Sequence record: SRR31156797_505
DNA: 29,799 bases
Direction: 5' to 3' (one strand)
Part shown: positions 12,566-26,759 of the stretch, in pieces
Layout: each line of letters begins with the position of its first letter
Position numbering within the stretch: the first letter of the stretch is position 1
Notes under the pieces: generated by a model
Databases searched by the model: none
Seen by the model: the letters and a program-made list of their open reading frames with translations, nothing else
What the model was told of the DNA's origin: nothing
Program-made: the position numbers and the translations under genes

Positions 12566-12604
12566 TATTTTCGTTTACGAACATTTCTTTTCGTATAAAA
12601 CCAT
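12566..12604. promoter_or_regulatory. GlpR-type operator(s) upstream of the citrate lyase operon
   Basis: TATTTTCGTT-TACGAACATT (12566-12585) matches the E. coli GlpR dyad WATKYTCGWW/WWCGARMATW at all 20 positions. A degenerate second half-site, TCTTTTCGTA, follows 20 bp later. Confidence 0.65.
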
Positions 12605-12750
12605 TATATTTTAAAAAAATAACTAGTATTCCTCACTTATTCATCATGTCTATTCTTTATAATTAATTGAAGTCATTAATTTTTCAATCTGCATCTATGC
12701 TGATACGGTATTATATAATCTGGCTCTGAACTATACTTAATAAAATACTA

Positions 12751-12778
12751 TTGCATTTGAAAAAACTTGGAATACCAT
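12751..12778 (+). promoter_or_regulatory. Possible sigma-70 promoter of citC
   Basis: TTGCAT-N16-TACCAT, about 35 nt before the citC ATG. Confidence 0.4.
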
Positions 12779-12813
12779 AGCTTTATAAGGTTTACTCAGG
12801 GAGAAGCTGACGA

Positions 12814-22702: not shown

Positions 22703-24316
22703 ATGAACAGAGATAAAGCTATTCAGGCACTTAAAGCAGGGGAAACATACGATGTTCTTGTTATCGGTGGAGGAGCAACAGGCTCTGGAGTAGCTCTTGA
22801 TGCAGCGAGCAGAGGGCTTAAGGTCGCTCTCGTTGAGAAGAACGACTTCGCAGAAGGTACAAGCTCCAGAAGCACAAAGATGGTACACGGTGGGGTACGC
22901 TATCTCGAAAAGGCTGTAAAACGCCTCGACAGAGAGCAGTACAGCCTTGTTAAAGAGGGGCTTCACGAGAGGGGCATCTTTCTCAAAAATGCACCACACC
23001 TCGCTACTCCGCTCTCATTTGTGACACCTCTATATAGGTGGATAGATGTTCCGCAGGTTTTCGCAGGGCTTAAGCTTTACGATATCCTCTCAGGAAAGAT
23101 GAACATAGGTAAAAGCCAGTTTCTCAGCAAGAAGCAGGTTCAGGAAAGATATCCTATGGTAAATGATAAAAACCTCAAGGCTGGCGTACTTTACTACGAC
23201 GGTCAGTTTAACGATGCCCGCATGGGTGTTTATATATTAAAGACTGCTGTTGAACAGGGCGCAGTTGTAGCAAATCACCTCGAGGTGACTGAGCTTATAA
23301 AAGATGGTGAAAAGGTCAGAGGGGCGAAGGTTAGGGACGAGTTTACGGGGGAACAGTTCGATATTAAGGCAACATGTGTTGTTAACGCTACAGGGCCTTT
23401 TGCAGATTCTATCCGTAAGCTAGACGTGAAAGAGTCTAAAGAGATACTCAAGGTTAGCTCGGGCGTGCATATTATGCTTGATAAACGTTTCTCGCCACCG
23501 GAGAACGGTCTCATGATTCCTAAAACAGACGACGGAAGAGTTCTTTTCGTTATCCCGTGGGAAGGGCACACTATCATCGGAACTACTGATGAGCCGGCAG
23601 AAATCTCTGAGCACCCGAAAGCTCTCGAGGAAGAGATAGAGTATGTTCTCGGATATGCAAATAAATATTTCAACCTTGGCGTTACTAAGGAAGATGTAAA
23701 ATCTTACTGGTCAGGGCTACGTCCTCTCGTTTTCGACCCTGAAAAGGAGAATACACAGGAGCTAGCCAGAACACACGTAATCAAATACAACGGCACAGGG
23801 ATGGTCACAGTCACAGGCGGAAAGTGGACAAGCTACCGCAGGATGGCTGAGGACGTTATGGATGTTGTTGTTGAACAGAATAGATTTGGTCACGCAAATG
23901 AGTGTGTGACAAAAACTCTCCCAATTATTGGTGGAGCAAACTTTCAAGCTGACGGGTACGTTGAACTCATGGAGAAATTTGATCTCGATGAAGACGTTGC
24001 CCGTCATTTGAACACATTCTATGGCGATAGAGCTTATAAGGTGGCAACTCTCGCAAAAGAGGGGTACGAAAAACTTCTTCATCCTGATTACCCTTATCTT
24101 GAGGCGGAGATCATTTATTCAGTTCGCGAAGAGATGGGGATACACGCCGCTGATGTGCTTATCCGCAGGCTCCCGCTTGGGCTGATAGACATTAACGCAA
24201 CTGGAGTTGTTTCAAATAGGGTGATTGAACTTATGGACTCTGAGATCAACTGGTCACACGAAGAGAAAGCAAGAGAGAAAGAGATACTAATGAATAGACT
24301 GAACGAGGCTATATAA
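22703..24316 (+). CDS. glpD: FAD-dependent glycerol-3-phosphate dehydrogenase
   Basis: DVLVIGGGATG, GTSSRSTKMVHGGVRYL, YYDGQFNDAR, NATGPF, SGLRPL and GGKWTSYR. Confidence 0.95.
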   Translation: MNRDKAIQALKAGETYDVLVIGGGATGSGVALDAASRGLKVALVEKNDFAEGTSSRSTKMVHGGVRYLEKAVKRLDREQYSLVKEGLHERGIFLKNAPHLATPLSFVTPLYRWIDVPQVFAGLKLYDILSGKMNIGKSQFLSKKQVQERYPMVNDKNLKAGVLYYDGQFNDARMGVYILKTAVEQGAVVANHLEVTELIKDGEKVRGAKVRDEFTGEQFDIKATCVVNATGPFADSIRKLDVKESKEILKVSSGVHIMLDKRFSPPENGLMIPKTDDGRVLFVIPWEGHTIIGTTDEPAEISEHPKALEEEIEYVLGYANKYFNLGVTKEDVKSYWSGLRPLVFDPEKENTQELARTHVIKYNGTGMVTVTGGKWTSYRRMAEDVMDVVVEQNRFGHANECVTKTLPIIGGANFQADGYVELMEKFDLDEDVARHLNTFYGDRAYKVATLAKEGYEKLLHPDYPYLEAEIIYSVREEMGIHAADVLIRRLPLGLIDINATGVVSNRVIELMDSEINWSHEEKAREKEILMNRLNEAI

Positions 24317-25738
24317 ATGAATAAACGTACGAAGATCGTAGCGACGATCGGACCTGCATCAGACAGTAGGGAGAAGCTGATTGAACTTCTTGACGCTGGT
24401 GTAAATGTTTTCCGCTTGAATTTTTCACACGGTAAGCAGGCAGACAAGAAGAAGCTAATAGAGACAATCAGAGAAGTTTCAGATGAGACAGAGCAGGCTG
24501 TAGCTATCCTCGCTGATCTACAGGGACCTAAGATCCGTGTGGGCGAGCTTGAGAATGGTGCTATAGAGCTTGTTGCCGATAAAACGGTAATTTTTAACAC
24601 TACTGACGTTGTTGGTGCTGGATGTCTTATCCCTACAACATATGAGGCACTTCCTCACGATGTTACAGTAGGGGACAGGATCCTGCTTGATGACGGGCTT
24701 ATGGAAGTTCAGGTAACACATATAGGTAACGACGAAGTGCACTGCAAGGTTATTGTGGGTGGGCTTCTTAAGAACAGGAAAGGTATGAACCTCCCGGGGA
24801 TAAAAGTTTCGTCACCGTCGCTCACAGAGAAGGACAGAGACGATCTTGCATTCTGTATTGATCAGGATGTTGATTATGTAGCACTCTCATTTGTCAGGTC
24901 TGCTGCGGATGTAGTGGAGCTTAAAGAAATTATAAACAGTAGAGGTTCATCCATAGCTGTTATTTCAAAGATAGAAAAACCTGAAGCTGTTGAATGCTTC
25001 GATGCAATTCTCGAAGTGACAGATGGTGTTATGGTTGCCCGTGGTGACCTGGGTGTTGAGATCAACGCTGAGCGTGTTCCGCTCATTCAGAAGAGCATCA
25101 TCAAAAAGTGCAACAAGGTTGGTAAGCCGGTTATCACAGCTACTCAGATGCTTGAGAGCATGGTGTCAAACCCGAGACCGACAAGGGCTGAAACCTCAGA
25201 CGTGGCAAATGCCATAATCGACGGCACAGATGCTGTGATGCTTTCCGCTGAAACTGCGTCAGGAGATTATCCTGTGGAGGCTGTCAAGACTATGGCACGC
25301 ATCGCAAAAGATGTTGAGAAAGACGTCGTCCTTGCTGAGAAATGCAACGGTAAGGGTGGCGAGTGCATACCTGTTGAGCTCACCGAGGCGATAGGTCAGA
25401 TAGCCTGCAACCTTAGCGATATTATCGGTGCATCAGGCATACTCGCTTTCACTCAGACAGGGAGCACAGCGGCTCTCGTTTCTAAATACAGACCGAAAGT
25501 GCCTATTGTGGCGGCGACACCTTTTCAGGATGTTAGGAGGAAGCTCGCACTTTATCACGGGGTATATTCGATAATAGTAGAGAATACTGACAATACAGAG
25601 GACCAGATTAAAATTGTGGAGAAGGGCGTTATTGATGCCGGACTTTACAAAAAAGACGATCTCGCTGTGATAACTATGGGTAGCCCTGTAACCATCTCAG
25701 GGACGACAAATCTGGTTAAAGCGTTACGCTTAAGCTAA
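24317..25738 (+). CDS. pyk: Pyruvate kinase
   Basis: [47 protein letters not shown] and DAVMLS.E. Its ATG directly abuts the glpD TAA. Confidence 0.97.
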
Positions 25739-25760
25739 GTATTTATTTGGAGGATATATA

Positions 25761-26759
25761 ATGAGTATTAAAGTTGCAGTAAATGGATTCGGACGTATCG
25801 GACGTTGTGTTCTAAGAGCACTCGACTGCTTCGAAAATGACGTAGAAATAGTAGCTATCAACGATCTTACAGACTCAAAAACATTGGCGCACCTTTATAA
25901 GTATGACTCTGTGCACGGGGTTCTTGACGCTAAGGTTACATATACGGATGAGAGCATTGTCATCAACGGCAAGAGTATCAGGATATATGCAGAGAAAGAT
26001 CCTGCGAATCTCCCGTGGGGCGATCTTGGTGTAGATGTTGTGATTGAATCCACAGGAATCTTCACTAAGAGAGATGGTGCGCAGAAGCACCTTGACGCTG
26101 GCGCAAAGAAAGTTATCATCTCCGCTCCTGCCACTGAGCCTGACGTTACAGTTGTTCTCGGTGTAAATTTTGACGAATACGACAAAGATAAGCATCATAT
26201 AATCTCTAACGCTTCATGTACTACTAACTGCCTCGCTCCTGTGGCGAAAGTTATTAACGATAAATTCGGCATCAAGCGTGGACTTATGACTACAACACAT
26301 TCATATACAAATGATCAGAGAATACTCGACCAGCCGCACAAAGACCTCAGACGTTCGAGAGCTGCTGCTATGTCGCTCATCCCTACATCTACTGGTGCTG
26401 CGAAAGCTGTTGGTCTTGTACTGCCTGAGCTTGCCGGAAAGCTTGACGGTTTAGCCGTAAGGGTTCCGACACCTAATGTTTCACTTGTTGATCTTGTTAT
26501 TGAGCTTAATAACGATGTCACAGCGGAAGAGGTGAACGAAGCGATAAGGCATGCTTCAGAAAACGAACTCAAAGGTATTCTAAGATATGAAACTGACGAG
26601 CTTGTCTCTATGGATTTCAAAGGTGTAGCGCATTCATCGATATTTGATGCACCGCTCACACGTGTTATGGATAAAAACCTCGTAAAAGTTTTCTCATGGT
26701 ACGACAACGAATGGGGATACTCTTACAGAGTTGCCGAGCTTATTACAAAGGTACTTTAG
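25761..26759 (+). CDS. gap: Type I glyceraldehyde-3-phosphate dehydrogenase, probably NAD-dependent
   Basis: [25 protein letters not shown] and WYDNEWGY. Asp in AIND and Pro in DQPH are the NAD-type residues. Confidence 0.97.

Follow-up and report, generated by a model that had tools for sequence, protein, structure and literature searches.

Sequence record SRR31156797_505 is a 29,799-nucleotide stretch of DNA (here called the window) in which a cassette of citrate lyase genes lies beside a glycerol module made up of glpR, glpF, glpK, glpD, pyk and gap. A sequence-only reading of the window had pointed to a GlpR-type operator upstream of citC, the first gene of the cassette, and had proposed that glycerol and citrate are metabolized together under a single regulon. 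The operators and genes concerned are as follows.

12566..12585, unstranded: GlpR-type operator, a perfect 20-bp dyad (0 mismatches; 24.2 bits)
12586..12595, plus strand: tandem half-site at +20 (7.8 bits; p 6.5e-4 at this fixed position)
12814..13836, plus strand: citC, citrate lyase ligase (TIGR00124, 256.9 bits, slightly below the cut-off of 262.1; PF08218)
13836..14105, plus strand: citD, acyl carrier (TIGR01608, above cut-off)
14102..14575, plus strand: gene for a PCC/DUF296-domain protein, a constant cassette member (PF03479; identical position in relatives)
14572..15498, plus strand: citE (TIGR01588, 350.6 bits, below the cut-off of 443.4)
15485..17023, plus strand: citF (TIGR01584, above cut-off)
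16980..17492, plus strand: citX, start approximate (TIGR03124, 103.3 bits; cut-off 105.25)
17434..18252, plus strand: citG (TIGR03125 and TIGR03132 matches below cut-off)
18268..18939, minus strand: IclR-family regulator with a degenerate recognition helix (family profiles; SEEEAERL against SKPSLHRL in close homologues)
19004..19786, minus strand: glpR (PRK10906, 335.6 bits, above the cut-off of 331; 135/245 residues identical to Escherichia coli GlpR)
19868..19887, unstranded: GlpR operator ahead of glpR (18.6 bits)
20099..20172, unstranded: glpF promoter region with weak operators (11.0 and 11.7 bits) and half-sites (11.9 bits)
20216..22464, plus strand: glpF and glpK (profile matches; followed by a terminator-like hairpin at 22479-22502)
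22605..22634, unstranded: glpD operator with tandem half-site (21.5 bits; half-site 8.7 bits)
22703..26759, plus strand: glpD, pyk and gap (profile matches; identical order in G200, L335)

The gene order given by the sequence-only reading was right, although it had overlooked the PCC/DUF296-domain gene within the cit operon and the IclR-family gene between citG and glpR. An amino-acid transporter gene sits upstream of the intergenic region that holds the operator, and a SulP/DauA-like transporter gene lies behind gap on the opposite strand. The cassette in the window includes no citrate transporter, citrate-sensing regulator or oxaloacetate decarboxylase, and an Rfam scan of 11000-29799 gave no match.

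The operator ahead of citC

Compared with the consensus WATKYTCGWW-WWCGARMATW, the site at 12566-12585 has no mismatch, the glpD site (22605-22624) has one and the glpR/glpF site (19868) has three. The perfect dyad ends 228 bases ahead of the citC ATG (12814), in agreement with the distance of about 230 bp given earlier. The consensus was taken from the earlier reading and from recall, and was hence calibrated against shuffled sequence, genomes and a weight matrix. None of 100 shuffles of the window gave any match at one mismatch or fewer. The background set comprised 65 Deferribacteres genomes (the class of G003; about 150 Mb), none with a GlpR match at E 1e-20, and yielded no perfect match and 10 one-mismatch sites. 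On a matrix derived from 63 sites at 80 unrelated GlpR loci among the matches listed, which is partly circular through its consensus pre-filter, the citC site scored 24.2 bits, the glpD site 21.5 and the glpR site 18.6, so that the claim that it is the best GlpR-type dyad in the window, above that of glpD, held. The E. coli glpD operator reaches 25.5 bits on the same matrix. No score of 18 bits was found in 1.58 Mb of other loci or in 3000 composition-matched shuffles of the intergenic region. Because the shuffle tests and the 65-genome background are empty of perfect matches, a chance origin of the dyad is excluded. An unrelated GlpR locus (L181:2062) has its exact reverse complement upstream of glpD.

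Both full sites are followed 20 bp on by a half-site, at 12586 on the citC side and at 22625 on the glpD side, as had been noted, and the weaker next-best neighbour of the E. coli glpD operator is likewise 20 bases off. Near GlpR genes elsewhere, a spacing of 30-32 bp is commoner (14/67 sites) than one of 19-21 bp (5/67). The citC and glpD operators differ at 5 of 20 positions, four of them degenerate in the consensus, a pattern as expected of two maintained sites. A recent duplication of the glpD operator was rejected on these differences and on the lack of flanks in common. One sequencing-run contig covers 10000-24000 without differences and is possibly the source of the window, and hence not independent of it.

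The local repressor has the recognition helix TPQTIRRD, against SPQTIRRD in E. coli (the PQTIRRD core reported before), and 55% overall identity to the E. coli protein; on helix and profile it is a true orthologue of E. coli GlpR. Match and rarity together indicate that 12566-12585 is a genuine GlpR-type operator, and it is very probable that GlpR binds there. The available parts of two papers describe the release of GlpR by glycerol-3-phosphate (PMC5493358, PMC4659176), and those of a third report single GlpR sites controlling the non-glp operons tff, tig and maoP, along with rhlE and rapA, in E. coli (PMC7567609). The window resembles the E. coli GlpR regulon (glpD, glpFK, glpTQ/glpABC) in its orthologous repressor, in a 20-bp dyad with three differences from the E. 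coli glpD operator, in the tandem layout and in having one non-glp operon with one strong site. It departs from that regulon in its target, citrate lyase, and in its host lineage, Deferribacteres, where GlpR was found in 0/65 relatives. Expansion of the GlpR regulon is already known; citrate lyase as a target would be new, and no description of such wiring was found in full-text literature, mostly outside subscription journals and without supplements.

A native cassette and a foreign-looking glycerol module

The CitC protein is identical at 224/340 positions to that of Denitrovibrio acetiphilus (P0277), and synteny with the Deferribacteres genome G025 is seen at the window's left end; these identify the probable host as a Denitrovibrio-like anaerobe of the Deferribacteres lineage. 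CitF occurs in 14 of the 65 class genomes, 13 of which hold it in the same type of cassette. Its seven-gene order, citC-citD-PCC-citE-citF-citX-citG, is the PCC type of Deferribacteres and Desulfuromonadia, and all examined cassettes of this type have the PCC/DUF296-domain gene in one constant place, between citD and citE. By distribution and similarity, the cassette is native to the host lineage. The operator is absent from these relatives: all 13 cassette-bearing Deferribacteres are GlpR-less, and none has a site at three or fewer mismatches in the 420 bases ahead of citC.

The glp genes, on the other hand, look imported, to judge from GlpK and Pyk. GlpK has 74-79% identity to proteins of Desulfuromonadia and falls within them in a 15-row tree that covered loci from Desulfuromonadia and Deferribacteres only and took two rows of another GlpK subtype as its root; a clade with the two Deferribacteres GlpKs was rejected (approximately unbiased test, p-AU 8.6e-49). 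Pyk shares 59-60% identity with Desulfuromonadia versus 42-46% with Deferribacteres (no outgroup). Close GlpR-bearing relatives are known as proteins (P0001, 96%; P0241, 87%; P0002, 82%), whereas the relatives among the matches listed from a metagenome scan were at 55-65%. In a second organism, CitC (89%), GlpR (96%) and the IclR-family gene (69%) are each recorded on a 996,913-base contig, which suggests that their linkage is common to the clade.

In Desulfuromonadia, the glycerol module and its operators have counterparts in GlpR-led glpD-pyk-gap(-pgk-tpi-eno-carboxyltransferase) operons (G178, G358, G200). The operon in the window stops at gap, as it does in G200, and here citrate lyase has an operator. 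G178 (L278:6829-18538), G358 (L283) and G258 (L337) carry an operator-led glpD-pyk-gap-(pgk-tpi-eno)-carboxyltransferase-pyruvate carboxylase B operon, which has the look of a module dedicated to turning glycerol into oxaloacetate or propionate. The GlpR-led glpD operon of G178 extends via tpi and eno to the carboxyltransferase and a pyruvate-carboxylase-B-like gene, so that a regulon akin to that of the window seems to link glycerol with the provision of oxaloacetate. In G178, G358 and G238, a distal glpD operator lies 209-210 bases from the proximal one. G358 (L280:7211, 24.1 bits) and G238 (L281:7484, 20.7 bits) also carry strong GlpR-like sites at a matching position far from the glp genes; downstream of them come a conserved, cysteine-rich open reading frame (ORF) of 66 residues and, on the other strand, a B12 radical-SAM-like gene.

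Elsewhere in the window, the gene for a multiheme cytochrome c (2533-4632; ExtM-like match below cut-off) has a sigma-54 two-component pair upstream, and the segment at about 29630-29799 resembles many places in G028 at 70-83%, probably as a dispersed repeat or the end of a mobile element. The helix of the IclR-family protein has turned acidic, whereas close homologues keep theirs; in G027, one of two copies is likewise degenerate.

Does GlpR control citrate lyase?

Three further features lie between the transporter gene and citC.

12530..12560, plus strand: candidate distal sigma-70 promoter (-35 TTCATA; -10 TAATAT or TATTAT), weak (8 of 12) and not in a stricter scan
12562..12572, plus strand: 11-bp block in common with the cit upstream region of G025, over most of the left half of the operator (14/1000 shuffles reach 11 near the diagonal)
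12751..12778, plus strand: candidate proximal promoter TTGCAT-16-TACCAT (7 of 12), apparently colinear with a 9-of-12 candidate in G025

Colinearity of the upstream region with its G025 counterpart extends through the operator (global score reached by 14/2000 shuffles). G025 has a 9-of-12 promoter candidate at the position matching 12530..12560, and in both sequences a 5-of-6 -10 hexamer stands one base ahead of the common block (chance about 0.07 and 0.08; noticed post hoc). The start site of the weak distal candidate might fall inside the operator, and direct occlusion of a promoter by GlpR is possible. We consider it somewhat probable that GlpR controls citrate lyase. As a whole, the explanation we favour, though narrowly, is that an imported glycerol module adjoined a native cassette, which acquired an operator and so became inducible by glycerol. 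A Denitrovibrio-like lineage would have received glpR, glpFK and glpD-pyk-gap from a donor resembling Desulfuromonadia; these genes would have come to adjoin the cassette, whose upstream region would then have acquired the full operator and its tandem half-site. When glycerol is absent, bound GlpR would block the distal promoter, whose start would lie under the operator; glycerol-3-phosphate would free the operator and switch on citrate lyase together with the glp genes.

Several observations weigh against this explanation. The local alignment with G025 is not significant (83/1000 shuffles; distal part 408/1000), and the promoter candidates are at chance level for DNA of 28% GC (5 found, 5.6 expected). 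No second full operator was found near citC, the next-best 20-mer between 12400 and 13900 scoring 3.7 bits, which leaves the looping invoked by the sequence-only reading without a partner; a half-site at 12756 was not counted as one, being expected by chance (p 0.34). Trees of Gap and GlpD do not clearly place the window with Desulfuromonadia. In a sample of 401 Desulfuromonadia genomes, CitC was present in 67 and GlpR in 47, and the 11 genomes with both, against 7.9 expected, amount to an overlap near chance. None of these 11 has the operator near citC (12 loci, none reaching 15 bits): the top score within 600 bases upstream was 14.3, inside coding sequence, and in whole-genome pattern scans of five of the 11, sites turned up at glp promoters but not in the neighbourhood of citC. 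Absence of the site from 13/13 GlpR-less cassette relatives counts for the favoured explanation, its absence near citC from 11/11 Desulfuromonadia with both genes against it. GlpR-citC wiring is not general. That of the window is plausibly a lineage-specific recruitment into the regulon, seen in one sequence; of the proposed glycerol regulon that includes citC, the operator is well supported and control of citC is plausible.

A conserved GTATAC palindrome lies within 130 bases ahead of citC in 13/33 Desulfuromonadia regions (L200, L201, L210, L212, L213, L216-L219, L222, L225, L226 and L263; shuffle mean 0.94, maximum 5 of 500) and may be the site of a native cassette regulator, perhaps of the GntR type. 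A dyad-like element about 240 bases ahead of citC in several Desulfuromonadia was rejected as an ancestral site, as it falls within the final coding stretch of a gene for a decarboxylase beta subunit. Across L259-L262 and L264-L267, several Desulfuromonadia have the gene for the beta subunit of a sodium-pumping decarboxylase immediately ahead of the cassette; others have enolase ahead of it.

Among the alternatives, a left-behind operator is possible but unlikely. It supposes that glpD-pyk-gap, once to the left of glpR and equipped with two operators, one proximal and one distal, moved behind glpK with the proximal one, and that the cit cassette took its place while the distal operator stayed; GlpR would then bind with hardly any effect on citC, and the site would be merely the footprint of a rearrangement. 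Two observations that favour it also count against our preferred explanation: in six related glpD promoters there is a distal operator, 263-304 bases ahead of the start codon, and in G200 glpD-pyk-gap, convergent on glpR, occupies the position of the cit cassette. Moreover, the sole site of glpD here is proximal (-98) and that of citC distal (-248), and the operator is close to the point where homology with DNA that follows the transporter gene apparently stops. Decay would be expected of a relic, but this site scores best in the window, and its left half is within the block in common with the cit upstream region of GlpR-less G025. The 20-base tandem layout, infrequent at other GlpR loci, is common to it and the local glpD site, and beyond the consensus there is no similarity to related glpD upstream regions.

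A second possibility, a sub-case of the favoured explanation, is the co-metabolism of external citrate, in which the cell would take up citrate, split it and use it as the electron acceptor for glycerol, with succinate and acetate as products at about 1.5 citrate per glycerol. It appears redox-balanced on paper, and the SulP/DauA-like transporter gene behind gap speaks for it. One further genome, G444, has the two sets of genes close together: of 53 genomes with both genes, it alone has GlpD within 10 kb of citC (GlpD positions compared). Its cassette (L289:5144-14268) lies between a divergent glpK and a downstream same-strand glpD, where relatives carry glpR, and no terminator was found between citG and glpD. 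Against this, G444 is a single case with no DeoR-family match in its genome, and its nearest CitC relatives do not have the glpK-cassette-glpD arrangement. An operator-like core between its citC and glpK (4.4 bits) abuts a hairpin repeat and was not counted.

Transport weakens the external-citrate proposal further. Enterobacterial citrate fermentation uses CitAB, citT or citS, and oad, and lactic acid bacteria use CitI/CitO. The window has the lyase, ligase and cofactor genes (citCDEFXG) of those systems but not their sensor, transporter or oxaloacetate decarboxylase, and its predicted signal is glycerol-3-phosphate. Of 122 flanking ORFs listed, 60 proteins from 23 cassette loci were scanned, near-duplicates and short ORFs being left out; these 60 included no CitAB pair and no 2HCT, DASS, CitMHS or Tct transporter, 19 were without a family, and two MFS proteins of unassigned substrate lay further off. 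In five cassette-bearing Deferribacteres, 2HCT was found in 0/5, DASS in 1/5 and TctC in 1/5; a broad CitMHS model matched all five, three only weakly. The missing CitAB and transporter at this cassette prove nothing in themselves, because that is the norm for the type, and the lack of CitAB, CitI and CitO, earlier used as an argument for GlpR control, carries no weight. With the transporter-less cassette also telling against it, co-metabolism of external citrate seems to us rather improbable.

It is doubtful that GlpR acts at this site on a different target, as a roadblock to read-through from the transporter gene, on a minus-strand promoter into that gene, or as a long-range partner of the glpR/glpF operators 7.3 kb away. 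No plus-strand terminator was found behind the transporter gene, and the minus strand has two 9-of-12 promoter matches, at 12687 and 12652, directed across the operator. Such matches are again no more than chance would give (5 found against 5.6 expected), no ORF of 20 codons begins there on the minus strand, the Rfam scan found nothing, and a roadblock would still equal control of citC.

It is very improbable that the dyad arose by chance or is the site of a different regulator, for instance the IclR protein encoded next door. In favour of the latter, three-box sites of the PcaU type are similar in appearance, group-1 IclR motifs have TTCG...CGAA cores with an extra half-site, the gene adjoins citG, and CitC and IclR homologues of another organism are recorded on contigs of equal size (64,205), but the local protein has lost its recognition helix and the CG pairs are four bases apart here and in the E. 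coli glpD operator against five to six in IclR-type cores (both motif descriptions from the accessible part of PMC8222616).

What glycerol-induced citrate lyase would mean

Under glycerol induction, citrate lyase could serve redox balance: oxaloacetate, passing through malate and fumarate to succinate, would accept NADH and quinol electrons from glycerol, and repression during acetate respiration would avoid a futile cycle with citrate synthase. The citrate would be external or come from a reversed tricarboxylic acid (TCA) cycle, towards which the absent transporter tilts slightly. The loop of citrate synthase and citrate lyase offered by the sequence-only reading fares worse, because such a loop hydrolyses acetyl-CoA without taking up electrons and so does not solve the redox problem of glycerol.

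A bolder version, improbable in our estimate, is that GlpR-controlled citrate lyase supports glycerol fermentation without an outside acceptor, with the TCA cycle run backwards as electron sink. Glycerol would give quinol, NADH and reduced ferredoxin, the carriers for the first three reductive steps; CoA transfer from acetyl-CoA would activate succinate, and citrate lyase would pull the cycle and release acetate, for a balance of 4 glycerol + 2 CO2 -> 7 acetate.

Clusters of this kind have drawn brief comment. The portions of the papers available propose a reverse TCA role, unproven, for the Geobacter bemidjiensis cluster Gbem_3862-3856 (PMC2996986) and call the role of the Pelobacter propionicus citrate lyase cluster unclear (PMC3022650); three Deferribacterales genome papers, in the parts accessible, confine themselves to ATP-citrate lyase or to citrate synthase run in reverse (PMC6896113, PMC13186404, PMC11896075). 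The cassette of the window resembles the Geobacteraceae-type citCDEFXG in being the stand-alone cluster of an anaerobic respirer, the Gbem cluster spanning seven locus tags, as far as its available description goes, and the window seven genes. It differs in its GlpR site near citC, which none of the Desulfuromonadia examined has, many showing GTATAC just ahead of that gene instead.

If GlpR does control this operon, the window would show cleanly how a repressor brought in from elsewhere can capture a native operon of central metabolism, and glycerol would supply an inducer for testing a lyase of unclear role in the literature. A backward TCA cycle on glycerol, if real, would be acetogenesis without the Wood-Ljungdahl pathway, a new mode of fermentation. 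For the transporter-less cassette of Deferribacteres and Desulfuromonadia, glycerol would be the first physiological cue.

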